From an uncultured Gammaproteobacteria bacterium (GTDB lineage Bacteria; Pseudomonadota; Gammaproteobacteria; SZUA-229): a stretch of 64,000 bases of DNA. Below are positions 15,080 through 61,578 of this stretch, piece by piece. Under the pieces are notes generated by a model. It saw nothing but the letters and a program-made list of their open reading frames with translations. It made no database searches and was not told where the DNA came from. The DNA lies in NCBI GenBank assembly GCA_942492025.1, contig CALODJ010000012.1, positions 569,272-633,271 on the forward strand, read 5' to 3'. How positions within the stretch are numbered: position 1 is the first letter of the stretch; the number at the start of each line of letters is the position of its first letter. A program made the translations under genes and the position numbers.

Positions 15080-15270
15080 CGTATTACGTTGATGAAATAA
15101 AGCGAATTCAACGTAGGGTGCGCCATGCGCACCGAAATCAGGACAACAAGCCCGATTGGCTGCAGAGTGGTGCGCACGGCGCACCCTGCCTGTGAAAGTA
15201 TTCACCCATTCGATTCGGGGAAGGACCTAACACATAAACCTCTGCGTCTCCGCGGCTCTGCGGTACAAAA
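15080..15270. repeat. Core-palindrome repeat copy (15113-15188) with a partial right IR2 arm
   Basis: GTAGGGTGCGCCATGCGCACC...GGTGCGCACGGCGCACCCTGCC. The left interior GTATTACGTTGATGAAATAAAGCG matches the other copies, and the right arm is CTCTGCGTCTCCGCGGCTCTGCGGT. Confidence 0.8.
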
Positions 15271-15292
15271 ATTATCAAGCAGTAAAAATAAG

Positions 15293-16021
15293 CTAACTAA
15301 ATTCAACCAGCTCGAATTCCATATCGGCATTTGTGCGTAGATAGTTGCCGTGTTGGTACCAGTCGCCGAGGACGACTCTTTTCACCTTCTGACCATCAAG
15401 CTCGAATTCGTGAATTCCAGGCCTGTGGGTATGACCATGGATCAATACTTTAGTCTTAAATTCGCGCATGATATTTTCAACAGCGTGCTGGTTGACATCC
15501 ATTATTTCGGCCGATTTATCGGATGTGGCTTTTTCGCTGGTGTCGCGTAGTGAGCGGGCAACCCGTTCGCGCAAGGAAAGTGGCAGTAACAGAAAAAGCC
15601 GTTGATAGAATCTGTTGCGTACTTTGGCCCTGAAGTTTTGATAGGCGATATCGTCTGTGCACAACAAATCACCGTGCATCAACAGCACCGGTTGATGGTT
15701 CATGTGTGCTATACAGGGATCGTCGATGATTTCGAAGTAATGCCGACTGGCGAGCTTCTTGCCGACAAGAAAATCGCGATTACCGTGCATAAACCGGACC
15801 CGGGTGCCAGACTGGTGCAGATGATCGAGCGCGTTGAATACAGGTTGAAGGCCGGCTGCCTTGTCGTCATCACCAATCCAGTATTCGAGAAAATCGCCCA
15901 GGATGTAGAGCACATCGGCCTGAATTGCAATATCGTCAACAAACTTCTGAAACAGCCGGATAATCTCCGGCCTCTCTGGTGCAAGATGCAAGTCTGATAT
16001 GAACAGACTGTTGTCAGTCAT
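15293..16021 (-). CDS. lpxH: UDP-2,3-diacylglucosamine pyrophosphohydrolase
   Basis: 242 aa calcineurin-like metallophosphoesterase. It has N-terminal LFISDLHL and the GNRD and GHTH motifs. Confidence 0.88.
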   Translation of the reverse strand: MTDNSLFISDLHLAPERPEIIRLFQKFVDDIAIQADVLYILGDFLEYWIGDDDKAAGLQPVFNALDHLHQSGTRVRFMHGNRDFLVGKKLASRHYFEIIDDPCIAHMNHQPVLLMHGDLLCTDDIAYQNFRAKVRNRFYQRLFLLLPLSLRERVARSLRDTSEKATSDKSAEIMDVNQHAVENIMREFKTKVLIHGHTHRPGIHEFELDGQKVKRVVLGDWYQHGNYLRTNADMEFELVEFS

Positions 16022-16024
16022 GCA

Positions 16025-16522
16025 TCAAATTTCAGTGGCCGTTCTAATTTCGACGATATCTTCGGGCACATCGCTGTGACCGGATCGGTTGGTCGTGCTG
16101 ACCTTGGCGATCTCATCAACCACATCCATACCGTCAGTCACCTTCCCAAATACACAGTAACCCCAGCCCTGTACATTTGGTGCAGTGTAGTTCAAAAAGT
16201 CATTGTTTTTATGGTTAATGAAAAATTGGGCCGTTGCCGAATCCGGGTCCTGCGTGCGGGCCATTGCGATAGTGCCGCGATCATTGGGCAGGCCATTGTC
16301 CGCTTCATTTTTAATCGGATCCTGGGTACTTTTTTGCATCATCTGGTTATTGAAACCGCCCCCCTGTATCATGAAGTTCTTGATCACGCGATGGAAAATG
16401 GTGCCATCATAATAGCCTTCGCGCACATAGCTGAGGAAATTGCTTACGGTCTTCGGTGCTTTTTCTTCGTTGAGTTCGATGACAATGTCACCCATGGTGG
16501 TTTCGAGTTTGACAGTCGACAT
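16025..16522 (-). CDS. ppiB: Peptidyl-prolyl cis-trans isomerase B (cyclophilin)
   Basis: It carries the cyclophilin signature [15 protein letters not shown] and the [17 protein letters not shown] region. The start was set at [13 protein letters not shown]. Confidence 0.9.
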
Positions 16523-16769
16523 AATAATGGCCTTGTTTAGTTGGTCGATGTTTAAAAACGGATTATGAACGCGCAGTTTGCCCAAAGCGACGCAGCTTGG
16601 TCAACCTGAATCTATTTCAGTAATGATATTGTGTTGAACAGGGTGTTAACCGCGGAGGCGCGGAGAAATTTTTATGGTCTGTAGGAGCGGCTTGAGCCGC
16701 GATCCGCTGCAAATCGCGACTAAAGTCGCTCACAAAAACCTTAATAATTCTCTTTTTCTCCGCTCCTTT

Positions 16770-17077
16770 AGCCCGTATTTCTCACCAGGCGGCGTGGAAT
16801 ACTGGTAAGGCATTGGTTATTTGGAGTGAAGCTCGGATGATTAGAAATACAGTGTGTTATTCAAGCATGCCTATCACGCTTCAGGCGGGTCTTGGTTTGC
16901 ATGAGATCGTAGGGTGCGCCGTGCGCACCGTGAATCTTCAGTGTGCTGGGCTGTTTCGGTGCGCACGGCGCACCCTACGGTCGCTTCACCCAAGCTATTG
17001 CTACGCTTTTCGCTCCAGAGCGGCGCTTACGAATACGAATCCTGCGCCTGTTCCCGTGATCCTGGTGAGAAATGCGG
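16770..17077. repeat. Large IR1-bounded element, about 308 bp, with a nested core palindrome (16909-16978)
   Basis: The termini are AGCCCGTATTTCTCACCAGG and CCTGGTGAGAAATGCGGG. The interior is homologous to the 41750-41995 element, apart from the inserted GTAGGGTGCGCC core. Confidence 0.85.
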
Positions 17078-17108
17078 GTTAGGACATACATTAATTTCTG
17101 CCGGAAAA

Positions 17109-17185
17109 TGGCGCCCCGGAGACGATTTGAACGTCCGACCTGCCGCTTAGGAGGCGGCTGCTCTATCCTGCTGAGCTACCGGGGC
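17109..17185 (-). tRNA. tRNA-Arg, anticodon CCT
   Basis: The reverse complement is GCCCCGGTAGCTCAGCAGGATAGAGCAGCCGCCTCCTAAGCGGCAGGTCGGACGTTCAAATCGTCTCCGGGGCGCCA. It has a 7-bp acceptor stem, D-arm, anticodon loop CU-CCU-AA, a TTCAAAT T-loop and a 3' CCA. Confidence 0.8.
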
Positions 17186-17288
17186 AGTATCTTTAATCAT
17201 GAACCCGGCTATTATACCAGCCAAGGTTAGTTACGTCAGAACTGTTGAATGTAGGTTCCTAATATCGGAATGAACCGCCATCATCCGG

Positions 17289-19034
17289 TTAACGCGGCAG
17301 CTTGCGGCGCTCGGTTTTATGCATATATCGGTGCAACAGACGCCAGACAAAGGATTCCGGCTCGTTCTTGAAGGTCATCACATAATTCAGACTGCTCATG
17401 ACTCTCAGTGTCCAGTCCATGCTATTCTTGATTTCACGTGTGCCACAGAACAGTAGTCTGTCAGCATATTTGATATCCATATCCTCACTCGGCATCATCG
17501 TCTTCTCCACACCGCGGACATGTAGCAGGGGTACGCATTTGAGCTTCAGATAACGTGAGGCCGGGTCCTGGGTGATATGTCCAAGATTGATGAATCTGCC
17601 GAGTTCGAGTGCTTCTGCTACAGCAGGAGAAGAACTGTCGGTGATTTCTACCGTCCAGATATGCGGTTTGTGGCTGCCCACCACAGCGCTCAGTCGACTG
17701 ATGGTGATATTCGCCCACTCTTCATCGAAATTATTGGCCAGTTGCAAATAGTCCACCAGTAGCGGGTTGAGAAAAACGGCCCGAATTTTTCTGGCGGTGA
17801 TCTCTCTGGGACGCATGATCAGGTTGGCACGCGTGGCAGTATACAGATCATAGTTATTGTAGATGTTCTGGCGGGCAACAACGAACAGATCCGGATTGAT
17901 CGCACGGGCAGTCATGATGATCGACAGGTTATTCGAGTCATTATCGGATCCTGCGATGATGCCGGCAGATTTATCCACGCCAGCCTGCCTCAGTGTTTTC
18001 TCATCAATCCCGGTGCCAAGAATGAAATTCTTCTTGTAATCGACATGGTGATGTTCGAATTCATCACGGACGTCGACCGACGGATCAATCACCGTAACTT
18101 CGATATCATGTTCGATCAGCAGCTTGTACAGCTCTTTGCCAAAGCGTCCGTAACCACACAATATCCAGTGGCCGTACCTGAAATAGACAGGATCACTCAA
18201 TCGGGTGTTGGGAACACCGGTCAACCAGTCATAAATTAGATGCAGTGATGGGGAGTGCATCAGCATTTCAAACATGGTTGCAAAAGTTTCAAACGGATTG
18301 ACCACGTGGTCTGTGCCGAATGAGAGCATATTCTCTTCATATTCTTTCAGTTCTGAACGGCAGACCACTTTGACGTTGGGATGAAGCAGTTTACTGGTAA
18401 TGGCGATTTTAAGGTTTATATCATCCGTTGCAGTTAACGCGATGACCCCCTTGCAGTTGGCTCGCTTGATACCCGCAGACTCGAGCTGCACAGCATCTGA
18501 AGCATCACCTATGATGTTAGGCACATACTCTCGCATATCATACAGTCTGATTTCATTCAGATTGTCGGGATTGTTTTCAATGACAACGGCACGGTAGTGT
18601 TCTTCTGTCAGCGCGGTGACAACCTCGTAGCCGGTTTCGCCCAGTCCGCACACCAGGTAGAACGGTTCGTTGATACTATTTACTCTCTTTCTGAAACGTG
18701 AACTGGTCACTGCAGCTTTGAAATGAGGATCCTGTATCAGTGTCAGTATCTTGCCGATGGCATACAGCCATGCAATGACCAGTATGTAAATCGAAAATAC
18801 GACCCACAGTCGTTGGGCATCAGATAGCGGGTACGGGATTTCACCAAAGCCGATGGTGGTCGCTGTATAACTGACAAAATAGAAGGCATGAAAGATGCTC
18901 ATGTGCCACGGATTGCCTTGATCATCAACTCCGGGTATCAGGATCATCCCCAGAATCGCAATATTGTATACCGTGATAAGCATGATAAACGGTCTGCGCA
19001 TGCGCCGAAGTATCATGGCGGTAACCAGGTTCAC
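17289..19034 (-). CDS. Potassium channel family protein with two RCK/TrkA-N domains
   Basis: 581 aa. The N-terminal 2-TM pore has the filter-like TTIGFGEIP. Two Rossmann RCK domains follow (LVCGLGETGYEV and ILCGYGRFGKELY). Confidence 0.7.
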   Translation of the reverse strand: MNLVTAMILRRMRRPFIMLITVYNIAILGMILIPGVDDQGNPWHMSIFHAFYFVSYTATTIGFGEIPYPLSDAQRLWVVFSIYILVIAWLYAIGKILTLIQDPHFKAAVTSSRFRKRVNSINEPFYLVCGLGETGYEVVTALTEEHYRAVVIENNPDNLNEIRLYDMREYVPNIIGDASDAVQLESAGIKRANCKGVIALTATDDINLKIAITSKLLHPNVKVVCRSELKEYEENMLSFGTDHVVNPFETFATMFEMLMHSPSLHLIYDWLTGVPNTRLSDPVYFRYGHWILCGYGRFGKELYKLLIEHDIEVTVIDPSVDVRDEFEHHHVDYKKNFILGTGIDEKTLRQAGVDKSAGIIAGSDNDSNNLSIIMTARAINPDLFVVARQNIYNNYDLYTATRANLIMRPREITARKIRAVFLNPLLVDYLQLANNFDEEWANITISRLSAVVGSHKPHIWTVEITDSSSPAVAEALELGRFINLGHITQDPASRYLKLKCVPLLHVRGVEKTMMPSEDMDIKYADRLLFCGTREIKNSMDWTLRVMSSLNYVMTFKNEPESFVWRLLHRYMHKTERRKLPR

Positions 19035-19125
19035 GGGCTTAACTCCATGCCGAAGTCGGGTAATTAACGAGCTGTGATCGATCAGCCATCGGGCACCTTG
19101 AACACATAGACCGGGGTTGTCTCAA

Positions 19126-19509
19126 TCAATGACGAAGCATCGCTGCCTCAATCATCAGCAGGATCACCGAGATAATGTTTGCCAGCATTGCGCCACCGCT
19201 GAGGGAAACAATGGTAGACATCACGGCGGGGGTAAGCCCTGTTTCCTGAATATGCACGGCAAAAGTCCAGACGATGGTGGCTGATATAAGCTGGACGACG
19301 GCGACCAGGCTCGTTGCCAGCAACATGGCGCCCAGTTGAGAGCGGTCACCGAATTTCATGATGGTTGCTATCAGGTTGACCACCAGTACGGCGTATAGCT
19401 CATAGACGTTGTGGTGTGCAGGATTGTCAACTTCCCCGACGAAGAAGCCGAAGTTCAGAGTCAAAGCCAGGATCATGAAGAAACTGAAAACCACTTTTTC
19501 AAGGTTCAT
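19126..19509 (-). CDS. Small integral membrane protein of unknown function
   Basis: 127 aa, about 4 predicted TM helices, co-directional with and upstream of the channel gene. Confidence 0.45.
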   Translation of the reverse strand: MNLEKVVFSFFMILALTLNFGFFVGEVDNPAHHNVYELYAVLVVNLIATIMKFGDRSQLGAMLLATSLVAVVQLISATIVWTFAVHIQETGLTPAVMSTIVSLSGGAMLANIISVILLMIEAAMLRH

Positions 19510-19613
19510 AGATCACCTTTTTTATTATTTGCCCAAATTGTAGCTCATTTGACCCGTTCACGTCCTGATTCGACAACAGGATACAGAGAACACGCAAAAT
19601 AGCGTGATTATTT

Positions 19614-19792
19614 TAACCACAGAGGCGCAGAGAAAACGATCACCTTGTACTGCGTATTTATCTGCATTCAGTCAGTATATGTAGGGTGCGCCGTGCGCAC
19701 CGATACAATTAAACGAATTTCAGATATTGAACATGTATAAGCTGCACACGGCGCACCCCAACGTAAAACTTATCTCTGCGCCTCTGCGGTAA
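19614..19792. repeat. IR2-bounded element carrying a core palindrome (19681-19760)
   Basis: The left arm is AACCACAGAGGCGCAGAGAAAACG and the right arm TCTCTGCGCCTCTGCGGTAAAT. The internal core GTAGGGTGCGCCGTGCGCACC has a degenerate right half. Confidence 0.8.
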
Positions 19793-19825
19793 ATAGAAGT
19801 TGATACCAGGCTGGGAGAGAGTGAA

Positions 19826-24407: not shown

Positions 24408-24682
24408 CGTTCAAATATCCTTGTAAATCAATGTATAGCATTATATATTTCGATATGATCTAATGTAAATTTTCGTTGTTTCCTGGCGCCCATTATGGTA
24501 TAAAGCCGCCGCGTTTAACGCAATTCGACCGATAGGCCTCTATTCGAGCGCTGAGATGGCACAGAATGGACCACTATATCGGAATTTAATTCGCACATAT
24601 ACCGACACATGCAATCGGGTGCCGACTTTAAAACGGTCATTGCATGGGGTATGTGGAGGCTTAACCCCTTTAGGAGATCACA

Positions 24683-25621: not shown

Positions 25622-25690
25622 ATAGTGCAGGCAAGCCTGTAACCAAGCACACATTAAGATCCAAACGAACAGAATTTCAGAGGTATATTT

Positions 25691-26572: not shown

Positions 26573-26599
26573 ATACAGCATGCTCAGCCATTAAAAATA

Positions 26600-26630
26600 A
26601 AAACCGGGAATCTTTTTTCCCGGTTTTTTA
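26600..26630 (+). terminator. Rho-independent terminator after tsf
   Basis: AACCGGG aatcttttttc CCGGTT followed by TTTTAT. Confidence 0.6.
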
Positions 26631-26650
26631 TGGTTGGAATAATAAAAATA

Positions 26651-38793: not shown

Positions 38794-41751
38794 ATGACAA
38801 TACACGCTGCAGAATCAACGAATACGCTGAAAGGGCATGCCCATCCGGCCTTCGCCTGGGTAAGGTCCGAGCATATCGAATCACTCAATGTGACCGTCGA
38901 GGAGTATCGGCACATCAAGACAGGCGCCTTGCATTATCACGTTGACGCCGATAATAACGAAAATGTTTTTCTGGTCGCGTTCCGTACCGTGCCGACGGAC
39001 TCGACTGGTGTCGCCCATATACTGGAACACACCGCCCTGTGCGGCAGTAAAAAGTATCCTGTGCGTGATCCGTTCTTTATGATGATCAGGCGATCACTCA
39101 ACACGTTCATGAATGCATTCACCAGCAGCGACTGGACCGCCTACCCATTTGCCAGCCAGAACACAAAAGATTTTAATAATCTGCTGGATGTCTATCTGGA
39201 TGCGGCCTTTTTCTCCCGCCTGGATGAACTCGATTTTTTGCAGGAAGGACACCGGGTTGAATTCAGTGATGCGGATGATCCACAAAGCGATCTGGTTTTC
39301 AAGGGCGTTGTTTTCAATGAAATGAAAGGCGCGATGAGCTCTCCTGTCAGTGTTTTATGGCAGACCCTGAGTGAACGTCTGTATCCGACAACCACCTATC
39401 ATTTCAACAGTGGGGGCGAGCCGAGCCATATACCTGACCTGACATACCAGCAGCTCAAGGAATTTTATCGAACGCATTATCACCCTAGCAACGCGGTGTT
39501 CATGACCTTTGGCGATATCCCGGCAGCCGATCACCAGAAACAATTCGAGGAAAAAGCGCTGTGCCATTTCGACAAGCTCGACGTGGATATACGCGTCAAT
39601 GATGAACAGCGCTTTGACAAGCCGGTTATTGTGGAAGATGTGTACGCCTTCGACGCAGTTGAAGGCATCACCGAAGAACACAAAACCCATCACGTGATTG
39701 GCTGGATGCTGGGCCACAGCACGTCACTGGATGAGGTGATGAAATCCAATCTGCTATCGCATGTGCTACTGGAGAACAGTTCATCACCGTTACGCAAGGC
39801 GCTGGAGACGACCAAGCTGGGTACAGCACCGTCTCCCCTGTGTGGTCTGGAGGATTCGAACTATGAAATGTGCTTTATGTGCGGCATTGAGGGTAGTGAC
39901 CCCGAGCATGCGCAGGCATTTGAGGAACTTGTCATCGGCGTCCTGGAAGATGTTGCCAGCAATGGTGTTCCCCGGGAGCATGTCGAGGCTGTGCTGCACC
40001 AACTGGAGTTGAGCCAACGCGAAATCGGGGGCGATGGTTACCCGTATGGTCTGCAGCTCATCCTCAGTGGGTTGTCTGCGGCCATCCACCGCAGCGACCC
40101 TGTGCAACTGTTGAATCTGGACCCTGTGATCGAGTCCTTGCGTGACAAGATCCATGATGATAATTATATAAAGAACCTGGTGCAGGAATTGCTGCTCGAT
40201 AATCCGCATCGAGTTCGCCTGACGATGAAACCCGATATGGAACTGAGTCAGCGCAAGGAAACCGCAGAGCGCGAGCGTCTTAACAGCATGAAAGCTGCGA
40301 TGACCGCTGAGGATAAAACCCGTGTCATACAGCGTGCAGCTGAACTGGCACAACGACAGCTGCAAGTGGACAATCCGGAGGTGCTACCCAAGGTGGGGCT
40401 TGAAGATGTGCCCGCTGAAATGAAAATACCGGTAGCCACGCCAGGAATTATTTCCGCAGCTGAGTCCTCCTTGTATGCGATGGGCACGAACGGAATCGTC
40501 TATCAGGAATTGGTGCTCGATCTTCCCGCGCTCGAACCTGACCAACTCGACCTGTTGCCGTATTACTCGACCTGTCTGACCGAGCTGGGTGTCGGAGAGC
40601 GGGATTATCTTCAGGTGCAGGCCTGGCAATCGAGTATCAGTGGTGGTGTGAATGCACATACAAGCATACGCGGTTCTAGTGAAGATGTGCAGCACACGCG
40701 TGGCTATTACGTATTTGACGGCAAGGCGCTCGAACGCAACAATGAAAACCTGGCAGCGCTGATGCTGGCGACGTTTCAGTCGGTTCGTTTTGATGAGCAT
40801 GACCGTATTCGCGAAATCATTTCGCAAAGACGCGCGCGTCGTGAGCAAAGTGTCACTGGCAGCGGCCACGGCCTGGCGATGACCGCAGCTTCAAGCGGTA
40901 TGAGTCCAGTGGCCTCGCTGGGACACCGATTCAATGGGCTCGAAGGCATTCGTATTCTCAAAGCGCTTGATGACGCCAATAAAAGTGGTGCCGTGGCTGA
41001 TCTCGCTGAGTCATTTAGTAACATCCACCAGCAACTGGTCGACGCACCCAGGCAGTTTATGATTATCGGAGAAGAGGAGAGACTCGATGATCTGGTGAAC
41101 GGCTTTGAAAAAATCTGGCCCAGTGAAATATCGAGCGCAGGCTTCGAGCCGTTCAAGCTCAGCAGCGTAGATGAGACCATCAGGCAAATGTGGATTACCA
41201 ACACTCAGGTCAACTTCTGTGCACGCGCTTACAAGACAGTGGCAATGGACCATGCTGATGCAGCGCCATTGTCTGTGCTCGGCGGTTATCTCAGAAATGG
41301 TTTCCTGCACACGGCTATCCGCGAGAAAGGTGGTGCTTATGGCGGTGGTGCAGGGCATGACACCAACATCGCAGCATTCCGTTTTTTCTCCTACCGAGAT
41401 CCAAGACTGATCGAGACACTGGATGACTTTGATCGCGCAATTGACTGGATGCTGACAGGCAAACACGAATGGAGAATGGTCGAGGAAGCGATCCTCGGTG
41501 TTGTCAGCAACATAGACAAGCCGGGCTCGCCAGCGGGGGAGGCCAGGCAGGCCTTTCACAACCAGCTGCACGGACGTACACGTGAAAAACTGCAGGCCTT
41601 CAGGCAGAACGTTCTTGAAGTCACACTGGATGATCTGAAGCGCGTGACAGAGGCTTATTTGCACCCAGACAGTGCGAGCACTGCGGTTATCAGTAATGCA
41701 GCCACATTGGAACAAACAGGTAATCACGGCTTGGATGTGATCAACCTCTAG
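38794..41751 (+). CDS. M16C-family zinc metallopeptidase (PreP/presequence-protease-like)
   Basis: 985 aa with the inverted zinc motif HILEHTALCGS (HxxEH) near the N-terminus and a four-domain insulinase-like length. The stop TAG at 41749-41751 abuts the repeat terminus. Confidence 0.75.
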   Translation: MTIHAAESTNTLKGHAHPAFAWVRSEHIESLNVTVEEYRHIKTGALHYHVDADNNENVFLVAFRTVPTDSTGVAHILEHTALCGSKKYPVRDPFFMMIRRSLNTFMNAFTSSDWTAYPFASQNTKDFNNLLDVYLDAAFFSRLDELDFLQEGHRVEFSDADDPQSDLVFKGVVFNEMKGAMSSPVSVLWQTLSERLYPTTTYHFNSGGEPSHIPDLTYQQLKEFYRTHYHPSNAVFMTFGDIPAADHQKQFEEKALCHFDKLDVDIRVNDEQRFDKPVIVEDVYAFDAVEGITEEHKTHHVIGWMLGHSTSLDEVMKSNLLSHVLLENSSSPLRKALETTKLGTAPSPLCGLEDSNYEMCFMCGIEGSDPEHAQAFEELVIGVLEDVASNGVPREHVEAVLHQLELSQREIGGDGYPYGLQLILSGLSAAIHRSDPVQLLNLDPVIESLRDKIHDDNYIKNLVQELLLDNPHRVRLTMKPDMELSQRKETAERERLNSMKAAMTAEDKTRVIQRAAELAQRQLQVDNPEVLPKVGLEDVPAEMKIPVATPGIISAAESSLYAMGTNGIVYQELVLDLPALEPDQLDLLPYYSTCLTELGVGERDYLQVQAWQSSISGGVNAHTSIRGSSEDVQHTRGYYVFDGKALERNNENLAALMLATFQSVRFDEHDRIREIISQRRARREQSVTGSGHGLAMTAASSGMSPVASLGHRFNGLEGIRILKALDDANKSGAVADLAESFSNIHQQLVDAPRQFMIIGEEERLDDLVNGFEKIWPSEISSAGFEPFKLSSVDETIRQMWITNTQVNFCARAYKTVAMDHADAAPLSVLGGYLRNGFLHTAIREKGGAYGGGAGHDTNIAAFRFFSYRDPRLIETLDDFDRAIDWMLTGKHEWRMVEEAILGVVSNIDKPGSPAGEARQAFHNQLHGRTREKLQAFRQNVLEVTLDDLKRVTEAYLHPDSASTAVISNAATLEQTGNHGLDVINL

Positions 41752-41995
41752 CCCGTATTTCTCACCAGGCGGCGTTGAACACTGATAAGGCACTAATCCA
41801 TATAAGAGTATCCAGATGATCAAAAATACAGTGTGTCATTCAAATATGCCTATCACGGTTCAGGCTGGTCTTCGTGTCCGCAAGCTTGCTCTTCACTCAA
41901 ACCGTAGCTATTGCAGCGCTTTTCGCTCCAGCGCGGCGCTTACGTACACGAATCCTGCGCCTGCTGCCGTGATCCTGGTGAGAAATGCGGGCCAG
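41750..41995. repeat. Large IR1-bounded element, about 246 bp, without the core
   Basis: The termini are AGCCCGTATTTCTCACCAGGCGGCG and CCTGGTGAGAAATGCGGG. It is homologous to 16770-17077 minus the core insertion. Confidence 0.85.
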
Positions 41996-42307: not shown

Positions 42308-42328
42308 ATACAGGCGACAAGAGACCAG

Positions 42329-42512
42329 CCCGCATTTCTCACCAGTGGGCGAGAGGATTAGGCAGAGAGTTGTCTGTGCATTGCGTATTTCGTTGATGGA
42401 ATAAAGCGTAGAAATCGTAGGGTGCGCCGTGCGCACCAAAGTCCGTAGAACAAGCGTGACAGTTGCTACGAGGTGCGCACGGCGCACCCTACCGCACTGG
42501 TGAGAAATGCGG
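42329..42512. repeat. Full type-A element: IR1 arms plus a core palindrome (42417-42491)
   Basis: CCCGCATTTCTCACCAGTG...GTATTTCGTTGATGGAATAAAGCGTAGAAATC GTAGGGTGCGCCGTGCGCACC...GGTGCGCACGGCGCACCCTACC GCACTGGTGAGAAATGCGGG. Confidence 0.9.
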
Positions 42513-42711
42513 GCTAGCGGTAGTCATATAACCAGAACGAGATGTAGTGTAATACAGTGATGCTGTGTAAAACTGGGCTTGCATTTATAGCCAGCTATCG
42601 GTTAATACCGGGATGCGGTCTGATCGAACAGGCGGTGATGGTTGTTTTCCGCCTCTATAATGCGGCTTTCTACGCAAATGAACGCAACGGGTAATGACTT
42701 AAAAGGCAGCC

Positions 42712-46989: not shown

Positions 46990-47115
46990 TTTGCCTCGTT
47001 TGTTGATGAAATAAAAACGGACATATCGTAGGGTGTGCCGTGCGCACCAATCGGCAGCAATCAGGCTTTTTTGTGCTGATTTCGGTGCGCACGGCGCACC
47101 CTACCTCACCTCTTT
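46990..47115. repeat. Core palindrome copy (47028-47104) with the left interior segment and a degenerate right flank
   Basis: TTGTTGATGAAATAAAAACGGACATATC GTAGGGTGTGCCGTGCGCACC...GGTGCGCACGGCGCACCCTACC. Confidence 0.8.
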
Positions 47116-47660
47116 CATCGTACACGGATACCCGAAAGGTCGGTGTCAGTTGATCGATGGTAACAACCCTGTCGGATATGCTAACGCAAGATCCACCAGG
47201 GAATTAGCACATGTTGCCTAGGTCTCCAAATGCGGTACCGAGGTACCCCCGTTCACGCGTCAACTGATTGGCGCGATATGTCAAGATAATACGATTAAAG
47301 CGCATTAAATTAAGCATTGTCAGTGTTGATTAGCAGGGTACTGATGTGGTCATCCGATCTGTTCAATCACGTCGGGTTAATGCATAAGTCCTGGTTTGAT
47401 CCGACAATGGCACTCGCGTGTTGTCAGTTGCGGTGGAGTGTCACGCCGCAAGGCAAAGGTCGATGTAGGCACATCGGCATAGGCCGGCATTCCTGATGTA
47501 TTGAGGCGCGCGACGAGAATGGCATTGATTACGAAATAAGGTTAGAAACTTCACGAACCTGTTCACGCTGGGTGTGTGACGGGGTCGGCGGCAAAGTCTG
47601 TATCTTGCTGCTGGCCCCATTTTTGTCTGTTGACATCCACGCGCAGAAGTTTGAAACCTT

Positions 47661-48731
47661 TCAATTACAGTCGATTGGCGGGCACTGCGCCGTCAGTTGC
47701 GGTCGTGCCGTATGACTCAACTGCTGTTCGGAGTCACGAATATTGCTGTCATCGGGGGATAATCGGTAGGCGCATTGAAGAGATTGCTGAGCCTGTTCAA
47801 CACAACCAGCTGCGTGCAGGGCGTAGGCAAGATTATTCCAGATCAGCGGTGTGGCCGGACTCAGCTTTGCCGCATTCACGAGCGCTGACACGGCTTCTGC
47901 ATGATGACCGGATTCATATTCGATGTTGCCAAGCGTTATCCAGGCGCTGGGGCTTTCAGGCCATTGTACGGTGGCGGCCCGGTAGGCCTCAATCGCAAGC
48001 GCGTTCAATCCGGTTTGCTCAAAAGCATAGGTTGTTTTCAGGTAGGTGGATAAACTGGCTGTCGCCGGTATCTTGCCCACAGGTACAATAACCAGGCCCC
48101 ATTTGTCGGCGCGCTGCCAGGTGTTTTCAAATGTGGCGAATGTTGTCACCCAGCGTTTTGTCGTACCTGAACGCAGCAATATTTCATTATTGGCCTTGTT
48201 GTAACCAATGACGACCGCGTAATGCCAACGCGGCCACCAGTCAAATCCGAGGTTTTGCAGTACCAGCACAGGATTACCGGCAGCGATTTCCGCCAGCAGG
48301 TCAGGCAGTGTGGGATTCAGCGGATAAGGCAGCATGCCATAGCGCCGTGAGTTTGCGACCAGTTCGACTTGCAGACTACCCTGGCGTTGCGGGATGTATA
48401 TCTGCGATGAAAGCACATCGGGCGTCACATCAATGTGGTGTGATTGCAGTACGGTTGCCAACGCAGCAGGGCCGCATTGATGCCGGGTCTGGGGAAAGAA
48501 GGGTGTGTCGGATAATTCGATTGCGGTTGGCAGTGGCTGATGGTGATCATCCAGTACGGGTCTGCTCTTGTGTGTGCCAGTGCAACCGGCCAAGCAGAGC
48601 AGGCAGGCGAGTAAGGGGGCAACACAGAGCCCTAGGAGTCTGCGCGGTAGAAAGTATCCCTGCTGCAAAAGCGCCACAGCGGTCCATTTTTCTGTTCTTT
48701 TTCGTTGCGTAGTGCCCACTATGCGCCTCAA
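47661..48731 (-). CDS. PA2778-like lipoprotein: C39-like cysteine peptidase domain plus TPR repeats
   Basis: 356 aa with a lipobox (LLCLAGC), a papain/C39-like Cys region (QCGPAALATVLQ) and C-terminal TPR helices. Confidence 0.5.
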   Translation of the reverse strand: MRRIVGTTQRKRTEKWTAVALLQQGYFLPRRLLGLCVAPLLACLLCLAGCTGTHKSRPVLDDHHQPLPTAIELSDTPFFPQTRHQCGPAALATVLQSHHIDVTPDVLSSQIYIPQRQGSLQVELVANSRRYGMLPYPLNPTLPDLLAEIAAGNPVLVLQNLGFDWWPRWHYAVVIGYNKANNEILLRSGTTKRWVTTFATFENTWQRADKWGLVIVPVGKIPATASLSTYLKTTYAFEQTGLNALAIEAYRAATVQWPESPSAWITLGNIEYESGHHAEAVSALVNAAKLSPATPLIWNNLAYALHAAGCVEQAQQSLQCAYRLSPDDSNIRDSEQQLSHTARPQLTAQCPPIDCN

Positions 48732-48792
48732 AAGAACAGAAAACTGTCCTCACCGTGCCACTTTTTCGCTACGGGTATTTCTGCCGCGCAGA

Positions 48793-48835
48793 CTCCTAGC
48801 CCGCATTTCTCACCAGGGGGCCAGAAATGCGGATT
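48793..48835. repeat. Solitary IR1 hairpin
   Basis: TAGCCCGCATTTCTCACC aggggg CCAGAAATGCGG, an IR1 terminus folded back on itself. Confidence 0.7.
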
Positions 48836-48860
48836 TAAGGCTACCATGCATTGTTATTGA

Positions 48861-50567: not shown

Positions 50568-51155
50568 ATGCATATTGTCAATCGAGATATCTATAATCTG
50601 CCGAATTTTGTCAGTTTTGTACGAATCCTGTTAGCGCCAGTTTTATTCTATTTCGCATTTGCTCAGGAACCCATCTGTTTCCTCGTCACACTGATGTTTT
50701 CCGCATTTACGGACGTGTTGGATGGATTTCTGGCACGCCTGTTGAATCAGATCACGGAAATGGGATCGCGCCTGGACAGCTGGGGCGATTTCACCATTTA
50801 CAGCACTATGGCTATTTGCGCGTGGATACTCTGGCCAGGCATTGTTGTTCAGGAGTTAACGTCATATGTTGTCATCGTTATCAGTATTGTTTCACCGGTA
50901 ATTGCTGGCCTGGTGAAATTCAAAAGCATCACCAGTTATCATACCTGGACAGTAAAAGTGGCTGTCGTGGTTACATTCGTTGGCTACATTCTGTTGTTTG
51001 CAGGGTGGCTCGATTGGCCCTTCAGGGTGGCGGCTGTATTCAGCGCCGTAGCTGCGGCCGAGGAAATCGCCATAACGCTGCTGAGTCGCCAAGAACATGT
51101 CGACGTCAGAAGTATATGGGCGGCGTTGAAATACAACGAAGAGGATAACACCTAG
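50568..51155 (+). CDS. CDP-alcohol phosphatidyltransferase family protein (small, 195 aa)
   Basis: It has D-G-x2-A-R...G-x3-D-x3-D (DVLDGFLARLL...GSRLDSWGDF) and about 5 TM helices. The stop TAG abuts an IR1 terminus. Confidence 0.7.
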   Translation: MHIVNRDIYNLPNFVSFVRILLAPVLFYFAFAQEPICFLVTLMFSAFTDVLDGFLARLLNQITEMGSRLDSWGDFTIYSTMAICAWILWPGIVVQELTSYVVIVISIVSPVIAGLVKFKSITSYHTWTVKVAVVVTFVGYILLFAGWLDWPFRVAAVFSAVAAAEEIAITLLSRQEHVDVRSIWAALKYNEEDNT

Positions 51156-51341
51156 CCCGCATTTCTCACCAGTGGGCGAGATGATTACGCAGTGATTTGT
51201 CTATGTGTTACGTATTTCATTGGTAGAATAAAGCGTATAAATCGTAGGGTGCGCCGTGCGCACCGAAGTCAGTACAACGAGCGTGATTTTTTTACGAAGA
51301 TGCGCGCACGGCGCACCCTTCCTCACTGGTGAGAAATGCGG
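51156..51341. repeat. Full type-A element: IR1 arms plus a core (51245-51320)
   Basis: CCCGCATTTCTCACCAGTGGGCGAGATGATTACGCAG...GTAGGGTGCGCCGTGCGCACC...CACGGCGCACCCTTCC TCACTGGTGAGAAATGCGG. Confidence 0.9.
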
Positions 51342-51361
51342 AGTGAACCGCCTATTGCGCG

Positions 51362-52105: not shown

Positions 52106-52235
52106 GACTATACCTGAATTGGCGTTATATAAATATGCACTGAGTATAGTTGAAGATTACAGATAATTATTTGCTGGCATAATTCACTTTATTCTTGCCA
52201 GTGAGGCGGACAGACGCTGTGGCGGTACGTTGCAG

Positions 52236-52428
52236 GCCGAAGTTCTCACCAGAGGGCGAGATGACCACGCGGAGATTTGTCCATGCGTTATGTATTTTGT
52301 GGATGGATAAAAGCGTATAAATCGTCGGGCGCGCCGTGCGCACCACTTCGCAATAATCTTGCTTGTTCTACTGACTTTGGTGCGCGCGGCGCACCCTACC
52401 TCACTGATGAGAAATGCAGCCCTTGCGT
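52236..52428. repeat. Full type-A element, slightly diverged, with a core at 52322-52400
   Basis: GTTCTCACCAGAGGGCGAGATGACCACGCGGAG...GTCGGGCGCGCCGTGCGCACC...GGTGCGCGCGGCGCACCCTACC TCACTGATGAGAAATGCAGCCC. Confidence 0.85.
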
Positions 52429-52457
52429 AATAAGGCATTTCTATTTTCGGAGCCGCA

Positions 52458-55552
<3,095 letters not shown>

Positions 55553-55556
<4 letters not shown>

Positions 55557-56644: not shown

Positions 56645-56724
56645 GATGTTTATACTTCAGCCAATAACTTTAGGCACTGCCACCCGCGTGTAAAAGCGCT
56701 TGTCTTTGGCGCAACACTATCATT

Positions 56725-58539
56725 ATGGTACATCGACAAACCAGCAAGCCGCATTCTGACAGAAAAGACTGGCAGAATCTTAAGCGATTGTTCCCGTTCG
56801 TCTGGGAATACAGGGGCAGGGTCGTCATAGCCCTGACCTGTCTAGTTCTGTCCAAACTGGCATTCGTCGGCATGCCACTCGTGCTCAAGGAAATTGTTGA
56901 CGGGTTGGACAGTGAAAGCGGTGTGGTTGTTCTGCCGATCGTGCTGTTGCTGGCTTACGGCGTCTTGCGCATGGCGAGCAGCCTGTTCAATGAATTACGC
57001 GATGCCGTGTTCGCCAGGGTAAGGTACCATGCGATGCGGGGGATATCGCAGAAGGTGCTAAGCCATCTGTATTCCTTGTCATTACGCTATCACCTGGACC
57101 GAAAGACAGGCGGCATCATCCGCGATCTCGAACGCGGTACCAGCAGCCTCAGCTCGATCCTGAATTATCTGGTTTTCAATATCATTCCGACAGCGGCTGA
57201 ATTTGCCCTGGTTGCCCTGATTCTTCTGGGAAAATATGAAGCAAAATTCGCCTTTGTCACCTTCATTACGGTTGTGGTTTATATCGTCTTCACGTTATCG
57301 GTAACAGAATGGCGCATGCATTACCGCGTGCAGATGAATTCGCTGGAGTCCGAAGCCAACACATACGCTGTCGATGGCATAATTAATTACGAGACCGTGA
57401 AATATTTCAATAATGAGGATTACGAATTATCACGCTATGACGCGACCCTGAAAGAATGGGAGCACGCAGCTGTGAAAAGCCAGAATTCGATGTCCCTACT
57501 CAATTTCGGACAGGGTGCGGTGATTGCCGTCGGGGTGACATTCATGATGGTTTTCGCCGCGCAGGGTGTCGTCAGTGGAAGCATGAGCCTGGGCGATCTG
57601 GTTCTGGTCAATGCCATGATGCTGCAACTGTTTTTGCCGCTGAACTTCCTGGGTGTCATTTATCGTGCCCTGAAATACTCGCTTGCCGACATGGATATGA
57701 TGATGCGCTTGCTCGATACCGGTCAGGAGATCATGGACAAGCCATGGGCCAGGCCGCTAAAGGTTGATCATGCCCATGTCCGTGTTGAACACGTTTCCTT
57801 TGCCTACAACGAGGACAGGCAGATTCTGGATGATGTCAGTTTTGAGATAGCGACGGGTAAAAAGGTTGCTGTGGTTGGTCCATCGGGTGCAGGCAAGTCA
57901 ACACTGGCCAGACTGCTTTTTCGATTTTATGAGGCTGATGATGGCCGTATCCTGGTTGATGAACAGGACATCAGCGATGTGACCCAGGCCAGTCTGAGGG
58001 AGAATGTTGGCATTGTGCCGCAGGACACTGTGCTTTTTAACCAGTCGATTTATCACAACATTCATTACGCCAACCAGAAAGCGACGATGGAGGATATCAT
58101 CGAAGCCGCCAGGGTGGCGAATATTCATGAGTTTATTCAGAGTCTGCCGGATGGCTACGAAACCATTGTCGGTGAACGAGGCCTGAAGCTTTCCGGTGGT
58201 GAGAAACAGCGTATTGCCATCGCGCGTGTCATTCTGAAGAATCCGCGTATTCTTGTTTTTGATGAAGCGACGTCATCACTCGATTCGCGCTCGGAACAGT
58301 CGATACTGGCATCACTCAAGCAAGTCGCCAGACAACATACCACGCTGGTTATTGCTCACCGGCTGTCAACTATCATCGACGCTGACAACATTCTGGTGCT
58401 GGACAAGGGCAGAATCATCGAGCAGGGCAACCATCAGGCGCTGCTGGCCCAGGATGGACTGTATGCGCATCTGTGGCGGTTGCAGCAGGAAAAACGCGAA
58501 TACGAACTGGCACTGGAGACCGTTGCCGATACGGTCTGA
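56725..58539 (+). CDS. ABC transporter fused permease/ATPase (exporter type IV fold, ATM1/MsbA-like)
   Basis: 604 aa with six TM helices, then Walker A GPSGAGKST, the signature LSGGEKQR and Walker B ILVFDEATS. Confidence 0.85.
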   Translation: MVHRQTSKPHSDRKDWQNLKRLFPFVWEYRGRVVIALTCLVLSKLAFVGMPLVLKEIVDGLDSESGVVVLPIVLLLAYGVLRMASSLFNELRDAVFARVRYHAMRGISQKVLSHLYSLSLRYHLDRKTGGIIRDLERGTSSLSSILNYLVFNIIPTAAEFALVALILLGKYEAKFAFVTFITVVVYIVFTLSVTEWRMHYRVQMNSLESEANTYAVDGIINYETVKYFNNEDYELSRYDATLKEWEHAAVKSQNSMSLLNFGQGAVIAVGVTFMMVFAAQGVVSGSMSLGDLVLVNAMMLQLFLPLNFLGVIYRALKYSLADMDMMMRLLDTGQEIMDKPWARPLKVDHAHVRVEHVSFAYNEDRQILDDVSFEIATGKKVAVVGPSGAGKSTLARLLFRFYEADDGRILVDEQDISDVTQASLRENVGIVPQDTVLFNQSIYHNIHYANQKATMEDIIEAARVANIHEFIQSLPDGYETIVGERGLKLSGGEKQRIAIARVILKNPRILVFDEATSSLDSRSEQSILASLKQVARQHTTLVIAHRLSTIIDADNILVLDKGRIIEQGNHQALLAQDGLYAHLWRLQQEKREYELALETVADTV

Positions 58540-58556
58540 TGTTGCTTGAGGGATTA

Positions 58557-58878
58557 TTTTTCACCGCAAAGGCGCAAAGCTATTTTAAGTCCACAGATGA
58601 ACGCAGATAAACGCGGATTGTATGCATGGGATTTGTGCCGTGCGTGCAAGCTGAACAACTTCCCGTCATCGATGTATGTGTCGAGTGTCGTTAATAAAAA
58701 AATGCGTGATCCGTAGGGTGCGCCATGCGCACCGTTTGCACCAGTCGGGCGAGCTGTATGCTGTCGGTGCGCACGGTGCACCCTTCTACATTCTCCAAAC
58801 ATGAGAAACATCCGTGTTCATCTGCGTTCATCTGTGGACAAAAAACTTTGCGTACTTTGCGCCTTTGCTGTGAAAAAA
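58557..58878. repeat. Doubly nested IR2-variant element with a core (58713-58787)
   Basis: The outer arms are TTTTTCACCGCAAAGGCGCAAAGC and CTTTGCGCCTTTGCTGTGAAAAAA. The inner arms are CCACAGATGAACGCAGAT and ATCTGCGTTCATCTGTGG. The core is GTAGGGTGCGCCATGCGCACC...GGTGCGCACGGTGCACCC. Confidence 0.85.
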
Positions 58879-58975
58879 AGCGTTATCTGATCTTCTGCGG
58901 TAAAAAAACAATATACAACCCCGGAATATCGTCTATAAAAAACAGTAAGGGAACAAACTCAAAAAAAGAATAAAA

Positions 58976-61246
58976 ATGTCCGAACAAGACGAAGCCGCGC
59001 TCGATTATCACCAGCGTCCGGTACCAGGTAAGCTGGCCATCATTGCGACCAAGCCGCTCAGTACCCAAAACGATCTATCACTGGCGTATTCTCCCGGTGT
59101 TGCCTCGGCCTGCAATGCTATTGCCGATGACCCGCGCACCGCTGCAGATTATACGGTGCGTGGAAATCTGGTCGCGGTAATTACCAACGGCAGTGCCGTA
59201 CTCGGCCTGGGCAATATCGGTCCTCTGGCTTCCAAGCCGGTGATGGAGGGCAAGGCTGTACTGTTCAAAAGGTTCTCCGGTATCGATGTTTTCGATATTG
59301 AAATTAACCAGCCTGATGTTGACAGGTTCGTTGATACTGTCGTCAGCCTGGAGCCGACCTTTGGTGGAATTAATCTGGAAGACATCAAGGCGCCGGAATG
59401 TTTTGTCATTGAACAGCAACTGCGTGAGCGCATGAATATTCCGGTGTTTCATGATGATCAACACGGCACCGCGATTATTGTGGCGGCCGCGGTCCTGAAC
59501 GGCCTCAAGCTGGTTGGTAAAAAAATCGAGGAAGTGCGGTTGGTTACGAGTGGAGCCGGTGCAGCTGCGCTGGCGTGCCTGAATCAGCTGGTCAGTGCCG
59601 GTCTCGCAAAAGAGAATATCATCGTCACCGACAGTTCCGGCGTTGTCTATCAGGGTCGTGACAACACGGATCAATGGAAATCCGTCTATGCCGTGGATAC
59701 CGCGGCGCGCTGTCTTGCCGAGGCGATCAGGGGGGCTGATATATTCCTGGGTCTGTCCAGGGCGGGCATACTCAAAGCAGAGATGGTCGACAGCATGGCA
59801 AGCAGACCGCTGATCTTTGCTCTGGCCAATCCCGTGCCGGAGGTTTTGCCGGAAGAGGTCAGTCAGATCCGTGGAGATGCCATTGTCTGCACCGGGCGCT
59901 CTGATTACCCCAACCAGGTCAACAATGTGTTGTGCTTTCCGTACATTTTTCGCGGCGCACTCGATGTCGGTGCAACTACCATCAATGATGAAATGAAGCT
60001 CGCCTGCGTCAGGGCGCTTGCCGGTCTTGCCCGGGAAGAAACATCCGACCATCTGGTGCACGCCTACGGTGTGAACGAACTGCAGTTTGGTTCGGATTAT
60101 GTAATACCAAAACCGTTTGATCCCAGGCTGGTGGTTGAACTGTCTTCTGCTGTGGCGCAGGCAGCAATGGATACCGGTGTGGCTACACGCCCTTTGGCAG
60201 ATATACACGCCTATCGGGAAAAATTGACCGGTTTCATCTACCGTTCCGGTTTTTTCATGCGTCCAATATTCGAACTGGCTCGTGGTACCGGCAAAAAGAT
60301 TGTCTATGCCGAGGGTGAAGAGATCCGCGTATTGCAGGCGGCGCAACAGGTTGTCGATGATGACCTGGCCTTTCCGGTATTGATCGGTGATCCCGATACC
60401 ATCAAGCGGCGGATCATGAAACTGGGTTTGCGCCTGGTGGCCGGAGAGAATATCGATATCATCGATCCATCGAACAATCCCTTTTATCAGGAGCACTGGC
60501 GCTGCTACCTGAATATCATGGGGCGCAGGGGCGTGACCCCTGACAGCGCCCAGCAGTCTGTAAAAACACAACATGCGGTTGTCGCGGCCTTGCTGGTCTA
60601 TTGTGGTCATGCCGATACCATGATTGCGGGCGTGATCGGAGGTTTTCATCGATGCCTGAATCACGTTATTGATATTGTCGGCACGGAGCGGGGCATCCGT
60701 GAAGCCTCGACACTGGTTGCGCATCTATTGCCATCACGTACCTTATTCATCTGCGATCCGCATGTATCACCCGATCCGTCTGCTGAGGCTGTTGCAGAAA
60801 TGACCATGCTGGCTGCAGAGCAGGTTCGCAGTTTCAATATCGTACCAAAAGTAGCGTTGCTGTCACATTCCAATTTTGGTGTATCCTCGGCGCCATCCGC
60901 AGAAAAAATGCGCCGGGCATTGCAGCTACTCAACGATAACGCACCCGAATTAGAAGTTGATGGTGAAATGCACGCTGATGTCGCGCTGGTTGAAAACATC
61001 AGGCACAAGCTTTTTCCAGATTCAAGCTTGAGTGGTTCGGCCAACTTGTTAATCATGCCAAACGCCGATGCTGCCAATATTGCGGTCAATCTACTGAAGA
61101 TTCTGGGGGGTGGCATCACTGTCGGACCGATTTTGATGGGCACGGCGCGATCAGCCCATGTGGTCACACAATCGGCAACGGTACGTAGCCTGGTTAACAT
61201 GACGGCAGTCGCGGTGGTGCAGGCACTTCGGCGCCAGCAGCGATGA
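58976..61246 (+). CDS. maeB: NADP-dependent malic enzyme with a C-terminal phosphotransacetylase-like domain
   Basis: 756 aa. The N-terminal malic enzyme region ([13 protein letters not shown](P)-binding GAGAAA) is followed by a PTA-like domain. Confidence 0.9.
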
Positions 61247-61276
61247 CCTTCACGACGAACATGAACGCATCTGTCT

Positions 61277-61324
61277 GGCCCGCATGCTGCACGAAGGCGG
61301 ACGCCTTCGTGCAGCATGCGGGCC
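61277..61324. repeat. Perfect 22-bp-stem hairpin derived from IR1 sequence
   Basis: GGCCCGCATGCTGCACGAAGG cgg acg CCTTCGTGCAGCATGCGGGCC, with no T-tract following. Confidence 0.75.
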
Positions 61325-61353
61325 AGGTCATGAAAACCGCAAGATCGAGTGAG

Positions 61354-61578
61354 GTAGGGTGCGCCGTGCGCACCACTCGGAAATAATCCCGCTTGTAATA
61401 CCGGTTTCGGTGCGCACGGCGCACCCTACGAGGTGTACGGATGTGTTAACGCGCAGGCGCAGAGAACACCTCATACTTTCGAGTAACCAAAATTCTCAGC
61501 ATCGCCGCGCCTCTGCGGTTAATCAACGGCTCCACTTTGAGAACTCTGCGTCTTTGCGGTGAGAAATGCGGGTGACGG
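61354..61578. repeat. Composite repeat: core palindrome (61354-61430), IR2-only mini element (61449-61524) and a right IR1 arm (61540-61578)
   Basis: GTAGGGTGCGCCGTGCGCACC...GGTGCGCACGGCGCACCCTACG, then ACGCGCAGGCGCAGAGAA...CGCCGCGCCTCTGCGGTTAATC, then CTCTGCGTCTTTGCGGTGAGAAATGCGGGTG. Confidence 0.85.

Follow-up and report, generated by a model that had tools for sequence, protein, structure and literature searches.

Short palindromic repeats crowd the spaces between genes in the window analysed here, 64,000 nucleotides from an uncultured bacterium of the Gammaproteobacteria (SZUA-229; assembly GCA_942492025.1, contig CALODJ010000012.1, positions 569,272 to 633,271), and many of them sit inside one another. 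The question raised by this locus is whether the repeats are layers of one element or different elements that meet in the same places. The original prediction, made from the letters alone, was of a single family with three modular layers, a core and two kinds of inverted-repeat arms called IR1 and IR2. That view did not hold, as each layer occurs alone in unrelated organisms: the core is found in Pseudomonas, Undibacterium and Deinococcales, IR1 turns up in metagenomes whose GC content ranges over 36-75%, and IR2 in phage contigs with 32-73% GC. Nor are the copies of any of the three confined to the window. Very probably, three unrelated families of non-coding palindromic mobile DNA have accumulated in the "safe" DNA that lies downstream of genes, where they have inserted into one another.

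A repetitive extragenic palindromic sequence (REP) is defined by a 5' GT(A/G)G tetranucleotide followed by a palindrome (PMC3686654), and a REPIN consists of two inverted REPs that make one hairpin (PMC3686654, PMC3116915). With up to three mismatches allowed, the core arm GTAGGGTGCGCCGTGCGCACC gave 17 arm matches at nine loci, against 0.00 expected from 100 shuffles. This bears out the nine copies of the original prediction, two of which are displaced by 1-2 nt (51244 and 52324 in place of 51245 and 52322). Each arm is made of GTAG and a 7-bp hairpin, GGTGCGC-CGT-GCGCACC, which is present in 9/9 copies with invariant alignment columns. The arms form eight clean inverted doublets and a decayed one, with spacers of 26-36 nt between perfect arms, and the REPIN DNA was predicted to fold at -32 to -33 kcal/mol (z of about -9 to -10). 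All nine copies in the 64 kb of the window are intergenic. With its GTAG and palindrome, its inverted doublets and its multiple extragenic copies, the core is, judged by its sequence, a REPIN. A conserved leader of about 45 nt (…TGTATGTGTTACGTATTTCGTTGATGGAATAAAGCGTATAAATC-GTAGGG) lies on one side only in five or six of the nine, so that the unit copied in this genome is somewhat larger than the symmetric REPIN. The copies, in window coordinates, and one REP hairpin of a second class are:

15113..15189, REPIN 1: GTAG-REP, 35-nt spacer, REP-CTGC; leader from about 15068; without IR1 arms
16909..16978, REPIN 2: inserted within an IS1380 element of the 242-bp family (see below)
19681..19762, REPIN 3: right arm degenerate (19741-19762); nested in an IR2 element
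42417..42492, REPIN 4: within a 187-bp IR1 composite
47028..47104, REPIN 5: free-standing, with convergent genes on either side
51244..51321, REPIN 6: within an IR1 composite
52324..52399, REPIN 7: within a decayed IR1 composite
58713..58786, REPIN 8: innermost member of a triple nest
61354..61429, REPIN 9: free-standing, with perfect 21-nt arms
16681..16733, REP hairpin of the second class (GTAGGAGCGGCTTGAGCCGCGAT...): inside an IR2-type element

The second class, GTAGGAGCGGCTTGAGCCGCGAT, resembles the PF3/PF4 REPs of the P. fluorescens type (PMC3686654). A further class, AGGGTGGGCTTTGCCCACC, was seen in a related strain beside an IR1-type end (around positions 232-250 of L261; L-numbered loci are database stretches retrieved for comparison). 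The lineage probably hosts several systems of REPs and REP-associated tyrosine transposases (RAYTs). Between REPIN 5 and the next gene lie about 550 nt of non-coding DNA (47105-47660), unusually long for so compact a window, in which there was no open reading frame (ORF) call and no match to Rfam or to the repeats.

Outside the window, the species-representative genome set contains the exact REP 21-mer in at least 117 stretches, and 57 of the 117 listed stretches carry inverted doublets. The hosts include Pseudomonas, Ectopseudomonas, Microbulbifer, Undibacterium, Thiobacillus, Deinococcales/Trueperaceae and Desulfobacterales, among others. The 21-mer was also seen in one metagenome-assembled genome (MAG) of the Acidobacteriota and one of the Phycisphaerales. 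The original prediction had named a RAYT as a partner to look for, and for the core this was the right one: tblastn with E. coli RayT detected RAYT genes in two of the listed REP loci. In Undibacterium flavidum (L078) the gene is flanked by REPINs on both sides and its TAG stop lies inside GTAG, and in Pseudomonas kuykendallii (L037) REPs stand on either side. Both proteins match Pfam Y1_Tnp. They share 45-46% identity with E. coli RayT and 56% with one another, and for the L078 protein a match to E. coli TnpA-REP (PDB 4ER8) was obtained at 5e-43. A third RAYT, P0040 from a groundwater gammaproteobacterium of 67% GC (L398), is flanked by the loop variant GTAGGGTGCGCA(G/C)TGCGCACC. The identity among the RAYTs that accompany the exact REP (L078, L037) or its loop variant (P0040) is only 56-57%. 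An exact REP common to several phyla, with RAYTs this far apart, is hard to square with a purely vertical inheritance of REPIN and RAYT.

The core thus resembles the REPIN/RAYT systems described before (Nunvar 2010/2013; Bertels and Rainey 2011; 4ER8) in its 5' GTAG with an adjoining palindrome, its inverted doublets, its dense extragenic placement and the fact that the same REP flanks RAYT genes. It differs from published REPINs in the exact 21-mer found in Gammaproteobacteria, Betaproteobacteria, Deinococcales and Desulfobacterales and in the one-sided leader of several copies. A string search of the searchable literature found no paper on the REP sequence class GTAGGGTGCGC-NNN-GCGCACC. As in those systems, the REPINs would be copied in trans by a single-copy RAYT, a transposase of the HUH/Y1 type, which would recognise GTAG and the hairpin on single-stranded DNA.

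The IR1 query TAGCCCGCATTTCTCACCAGTG gave 10 matches in the window against 0 expected, paired at 16769/17081, 41749/41994, 42326/42516 and 51153/51345 and as a bare hairpin at 48797, with a solo end at 10444. The IR1 18-mer was located in at least 120 stretches of metagenome DNA (36-75% GC) and had zero matches in viral contigs. Inverted pairs of it in the metagenome loci (n=68) span 36-323 bp, with size clusters of 177-178, 240-245 and 36-60 bp, and the interiors of the 178-bp and 242-bp subfamilies are conserved from locus to locus. The owner of these ends is indicated by L266, in which a 1661-bp element with IR1 ends encloses an ORF for a transposase of 448 amino acids that matches Pfam DDE_Tnp_1_4 (3.8e-151) and NCBIfam transpos_IS1380 (6e-124). 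The nearest annotated relatives of L266 on plasmids, whose ends match, are given here with identity to the L266 transposase and terminal sequence:

P. putida pKF715A element: 58% identity; end CTA|GCCCGCATTTCTCACAG
IS1380A: 51% identity; end …ATTTCTCACA(G/C)
ISPa33: 45.8% identity; end CTAG|CCCGGATTTCTCAT
ISMaq4: 38.6% identity; end CTAG|CCCGGATTTCTCAT

The annotated ends that are near-identical to IR1, CCCGCATTTCTCAC in pKF715A and CCCGGATTTCTCA in ISPa33 and ISMaq4, are flanked by CTAG, and IR1 matches the terminal repeat of the family, CCCG[C/G]ATTTCTCA, as found in these three (an IS1380-family end of the IR1 type is also written CCCGCATTTCTCACCAG). By these sequence matches we identify IR1 as the terminal inverted repeat (TIR) of an insertion sequence of the IS1380 family, and the IR1-bounded units of 36-309 bp as its MITEs (miniature inverted-repeat transposable elements). 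The units share the terminal repeat and the CTAG flanks with the IS1380 family (IS1380A, ISPa33, ISMaq4 and the pKF715A element) and differ from it in being short (36-309 bp) and non-coding, in forming conserved MITE families of 178 bp and 242 bp, and in holding REPINs in some cases. The description of the repeats as MITE-like or REP-like is supported. No paper describing the IR1 end sequences or MITEs derived from IS1380 was found in the searchable literature.

The IS630-like transposase that had been suggested for the IR termini is not the partner of IR1: the element in L266 encodes an IS1380-family transposase, with no IS630 model among its matches. A TA adjoins 167 of the 205 IR1 ends (81%) in the wider context YTA|G...C|TAR, a CTAG-like target. 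MITEs of the IS630/Tc1-mariner kind are likewise flanked on both sides by TA, with a CTAG-like target, but the full-length element with IR1 ends has a transposase of the IS1380 family; the TA flanks, which would point to IS630, come from the CTAG target. The IR1 MITEs would be moved in trans by an IS1380 DDE transposase into CTAG-like targets. With such a target, three copies start within the TAG stop of a gene: the IR1 ends at 10444, 41749 and 51153 lie in the C-TAG stops of the genes for rpsA, an M16 peptidase and a phosphatidyltransferase. As CTAG contains the amber codon, insertion at a C-TAG stop restores the stop (CTA|G) and leaves the ORF intact. The IR1 features, named by the family proposed above, are:

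10444..10471, + strand: solo IR1 end of the IS1380 type, whose TAG serves rpsA as stop codon; missed in the original prediction
16771..17079: IS1380-family MITE of the 242-bp family with REPIN 2, 309 bp; flanks TTA|G...T|TAG
41751..41992: IS1380-family MITE of the 242-bp family, empty form; the M16 peptidase gene has the flanking TAG as its stop
42326..42522: IR1 composite (arms 42328-42514) around REPIN 4; near-identical strains differ in whether they have it
48799..48833: minimal hairpin of IR1, in which two TIRs stand back to back
51155..51343: IR1 composite around REPIN 6; the CDP-alcohol phosphatidyltransferase gene has the flanking TAG as its stop
52235..52421: decayed copy of the IR1 composite (REPIN 7), 73% identical to the 42327 copy

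The bare hairpin (48799-48833) and the large variant that lacks a core (41751-41992) had both been predicted and are confirmed here, and the metagenomes hold similar minimal hairpin forms of 36-60 bp.

The third layer, IR2, is of another kind. Its arm is T-rich and continues with TCACC and two or three tandem heptamers, C-R-C-R-R-A-G. The arms of both IR1 and IR2 were recovered at the positions predicted, with a few further IR2-type arms, and the three units made of IR2 only (6455-6685, 10914-11021 and 61449-61524) stand:

6455..6685: IR2 element, 31-nt arms with three CACAGAG heptamers, 169-nt interior
10914..11021: IR2 element, 29-nt arms, 93% complementary
15240..15266, - strand: single IR2-type arm, CGCAGAG/CGCGGAG heptamers
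16647..16667, + strand: IR2-type arm, CGCGGAG heptamers; a remnant of its partner at about 16750-16765 abuts the MITE
19608..19798: IR2 element around REPIN 3
58557..58877: outer IR2-type element with GCAAAG heptamers, which encloses a second IR2-type element and then REPIN 8
58583-58845: inner IR2-type element with decamers CACAGATGAA, around REPIN 8
61449..61524: small IR2-type element
61544..61572, - strand: solo end with an IS1380-type head (CCCGCATTTCTCACC) that passes directly into IR2-type heptamers (GCAAAGA CGCAGAG)

The IR2 pattern TCACCACAGAGNCACAGAG was found in at least 117 contig stretches of IMG/VR (32-73% GC, mean 61%), and clear hairpins are present as well in Undibacterium (L102) and on a Thiodictyon plasmid. 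In the viral contigs the arm pairs are 47-218 bp apart and enclose mutually unrelated interiors. The heptamers vary (CACAGAG, CACGAAG, CACAAAG, CGCAAAG, CACGGAG and the decamer CACAGATGAA); the two arms of one element usually share one variant, and elements of different variants nest in each other, as at 58557-58877 in the window and in L167/L214. The complementarity ends sharply, at T|CACC…GGTG|A. In one phage contig with a portal-protein match, IMGVR_UViG_3300037843_000150 (L167/L214/L222/L228), a hairpin of the IR2 type follows almost every gene. Such hairpins stand about 1 kb apart in phage contigs, and some are nested with a variant of GCGAAGA heptamers. A phage and plasmid BLAST with the IR2 arm gave weak, mostly single-arm matches in Nostocales, and a clear hairpin in the Thiodictyon plasmid. 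Intergenic single-arm CACAGAG runs (ACCACAGAGGCACAGAGGCACAGAGTACACAGAG) were seen in the Anabaena cylindrica plasmid pANACY.02 (L251 1500-1540) and other Nostocales plasmids; these may be relatives of IR2 or of the tandem heptamer repeats of cyanobacteria. IR2 had no match in Rfam, and the searchable literature yielded no paper on it. Nested small dispersed repeats, or heptamer repeats, of cyanobacteria were reportedly described by Elhai and colleagues in 2008. These repeats and the foldback transposons of eukaryotes recall IR2 in structure, by their arms of tandem repeats, variable interiors and nested small palindromes; the runs in Nostocales plasmids are weak single arms.

Could IR2 be a diverged or truncated end of the IS1380 type, moved by a relative of the IS1380 transposase? 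We consider this unlikely. A TTTC/TTTT-TCACC core is common to IR2, IR1 and IS1380 ends (...ATTTCTCACAG...), the end at 61544-61572 fuses the two in register, and degenerate subterminal repeats resembling the heptamers or decamers (GGGCGAGATGATTACGCAGTGAT) occur in the IR1 composites. However, IR2 complementarity stops 1-2 nt outside CACC, with no CCCGC head, no TA or CTAG flank and no target duplication; heptamer repeats are present in the ends of 0/5 annotated IS1380-family elements inspected; and the viral contigs rich in IR2 are those with zero IR1 matches. As ends of an insertion sequence in general, IR2 was likewise rejected, given the five IS1380-family elements without heptamer ends and the absence of a transposase between distant arm pairs of the viral, genome and metagenome loci. 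We regard IR2 as a separate and very widespread family of dispersed hairpins for which no partner was identified.

With the three layers described, the single composite family of the original prediction, in which core, IR2 and IR1 evolved and spread together, can be weighed. The layers do recur together in the window, and the end at 61544-61572 joins the IR1 head to IR2 heptamers at the common TCACC. Against this, each layer is abundant by itself in unrelated taxa, the REP goes with RAYT and IR1 with an IS1380 transposase, the phage contigs with IR2 lack IR1, and only 6 of the 120 listed IR1-bearing metagenome loci contain the REP. Such a single family is highly improbable, and we return to three families that have met.

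How they came to be nested is best seen in the large IR1 element, which the window holds with the core (16771-17079) and without it (41751-41992); the two align at 87-92% identity over the shared segments. This 242-bp MITE is free of the REPIN in at least eight copies (window 41751 and at least seven further loci) and carries it at one identical internal point in three (window 16771, L359 and L105), where the empty sequence …AAGCTTG|CTCTTCAC… reads …AAGATC[GTAGGG…CCCTAC]GGTCTCTTCAC… in the filled form; the L342 copy has unrelated insertions. The empty and filled copies show the insertion of one element into another. The nested arrangement had been attributed to such successive insertions, which is right as far as the 242-bp MITE goes, but insertion is not the sole route, since composites also move whole. 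The unit of IR1, leader and REPIN has three copies that are 73-88% identical over the interior outside the REPs. One of them, 197 bp long (42326-42522), is lacking in two MAGs that were assembled independently and are 99.8-99.9% identical in the flanks, and is present in four other assemblies. An empty version of the 187-bp composite was not found outside this organism. Nests thus form as a REPIN, or a hairpin element of another kind, inserts into a palindrome that is already in place; that the composite is afterwards copied or lost as one unit by means of its outer ends is partly shown by these copies and partly inferred.

The bacterial interspersed mosaic elements (BIMEs) of E. coli are similar higher-order intergenic mosaics around REPs at the 3' ends of genes. 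They consist of tandem or alternating REPs with short linkers (the typical form has alternating Y and Z REPs, defined linker motifs and binding of IHF or gyrase), whereas the partners in the window are concentric and come from different mobile families.

We next consider whether the elements are primarily structural or regulatory modules selected by the host, such as stabilisers of mRNA 3' ends, terminators or protein-binding sites, with dispersal being secondary; mRNA-stabilising, terminating and protein-binding roles have been proposed for REP and BIME in E. coli, where a REP near a stop codon is reported to lower expression of the upstream gene. All the elements are intergenic and downstream of genes, with none in a divergent promoter gap and none in the tightly packed rpsB-lpxA block (about 24-38 kb). 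An element had been noted at nearly every operon boundary in the second half of the window, where 8 of the roughly 12 gaps between genes that exceed 100 bp do carry one. The predicted folds are concentric hairpins of high stability (z of -9 to -12), with three concentric stems at 58557-58877 (-158 kcal/mol, z = -11.9) and two at 42326-42516 (z = -10.8). The IR1 hairpins that start in stop codons and the IR2 hairpins after nearly every gene of one phage contig also fit such a role. However, a search for intrinsic terminators over 41.7-61.7 kb called none of the elements and found 19 sites against 18 expected, and no T-run follows the elements, which rules out IR1 and IR2 as Rho-independent terminators. 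At the gathering score of Rfam only two features of the window pass, both of ordinary appearance:

24574-24665: t44 RNA, upstream of rpsB, 75.6 bits
17109-17185: tRNA-Arg(CCT), separated by 30 nt from the 309-bp MITE at its right end

The matches to the elements at E<=1 are chance matches to miRNA hairpins only. In addition, IR1 and transposons have identical ends, strains that share 99.8-99.9% identity differ in whether they carry one of the units, and confinement to the 3' ends of genes would equally follow if purifying selection removed harmful insertions. The elements may serve the host as RNA 3' hairpins, but selection by the host as the primary explanation of these elements is improbable in our estimate.

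The repeats and their nesting would have to be discarded if they were due to chance or to metagenome assembly, and to this we give almost no credence. Related MAG contigs do frequently stop inside the repeats, and one MAG contig has non-matching ends, but shuffled sequence is expected to hold 0 copies, and at least 10 independent assemblies (NCBI, JGI, ENA and Logan) reproduce these nested structures at 99.8-99.98% identity. The related contigs, from uncultured "Gammaproteobacteria bacterium" MAGs and from JGI, ENA and Logan, are 99.8-99.98% identical to the window, which is why the structures recur across so many assemblies; 10/10 of those covering the half at 1-17 kb are colinear with it. 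The contig with non-matching ends, of GCA_049668485.1 (L387 1-259 and 10266-10384), departs from the window at the right edge of an IR2 element (6682) and again just past the GTAGGAG of the second REP class (16687). These ends reflect a true rearrangement at the repeats or else a chimeric join in the assembly, and we did not trust them as polymorphism.

Several observations weigh against three mobile families with the partners proposed here. No RAYT was found in the window by tblastn with the E. coli RayT query, and in 634 kb of IR1-bearing metagenome DNA tblastn gave just a weak IS200-like match and no RAYT. The genome's own RAYT was not among the three RAYT homologues looked up: P0108 and P0109 are flanked by a different REP, and P0040 carries this REP class but comes from a host of 67% GC. 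As its own RAYT was not found, we infer rather than observe the mobilisation of REPINs in trans in this genome. Nor does the window hold an IS1380 transposase. The target-site duplication of the IS1380 family is reported as 4 bp, and the IR1 flanks are compatible alike with a 2-bp TA and a 4-bp CTAG duplication, between which they cannot distinguish. IR2 has inverted arms, but no target-site duplication (no direct repeat flanks the element edges) and no related autonomous element, and no transposase was found between IR2 arm pairs 0.5-3.5 kb apart in the viral, genome and metagenome loci; its dispersal is the one sign of its mobility. The three MITE copies that bear a REPIN could descend from a single insertion. 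The one empty site of the 42326-42522 unit reads GAC-TG-GTCAT, against GAC-CA[GCCCGC...GCGGGC]TAGCGG-TA-GTCAT when filled, which is not a clean duplication, so that gain and loss of the unit cannot be separated. The comparison genomes of the window, finally, are all metagenome assemblies, whose contigs frequently end at these repeats.

Around the repeats the window is housekeeping DNA with a gene order that resembles Pseudomonas and a GC content of about 51%. An enterobacterial origin, which the t44 RNA might suggest, was rejected on this gene order and on the 99.9% identity of the window to MAGs of uncultured "Gammaproteobacteria bacterium". Its first part reads tyrA-aroA-cmk-rpsA-ihfB-lapB and its next block rpsB-tsf-pyrH-frr-uppS-cdsA-dxr-rseP-bamA-skp-lpxD-fabZ-lpxA, with assorted genes beyond. 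Two further palindromes were seen. One, at 48632-48799, is imperfect, of 168 bp with 22-nt outer arms CTAGGAGTCTGCGCGGTAGAAA; its interior aligns reversed in a 98%-identical strain (L261 6424-6592), and the synteny of L261 with the window ends exactly at its left edge, ThiC genes replacing a TPR/C39 gene. The other, at 61275-61326, is a perfect palindrome of 52 bp (25-nt arms, 2-nt centre; -35 kcal/mol, z = -11.7) located 29 nt past the stop of a malic-enzyme/PTA gene, and it falls outside all three families. In L105 a related motif (…TGCACGAAGGCGGAC…) stands beside the MITE at about 2235-2270.

The established kinds to which two of the layers conform, the REPIN for the core and the IS1380 MITE for IR1, lower the novelty of the locus and make these two new examples of what is known; IR2 could be assigned to none, and it and the sharing of one REP across phyla are the more novel parts. 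The locus offers a worked example of small parasitic palindromes of different origin that stack in a compact bacterial genome, after which the stack is one mobile unit. The repeats are also the points at which short-read assemblies of this lineage break, and at which strains differ in synteny. The MITE family derived from IS1380 is common in environmental metagenomes, and its CTAG target allows insertion at amber stops without damage to the gene. One REP 21-mer across several phyla, with related RAYTs in the Beta- and Gammaproteobacteria examined, bears on the debate over vertical or horizontal inheritance of REPIN-RAYT systems, and a family of heptamer-armed hairpins without a known partner abounds in phage contigs. 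These three points may be of use to specialists. We put forward only tentatively, as less probable than the opposite, that IR2 hairpins make up a very widespread class of element not described before and that REPIN-RAYT systems spread horizontally far beyond what the view of vertical inheritance allows. If true, IR2 would represent either a new mechanism of mobilisation, such as foldback or hairpin-templated copying, or an unrecognised enzyme, or else a broadly conserved punctuation signal in RNA or DNA.

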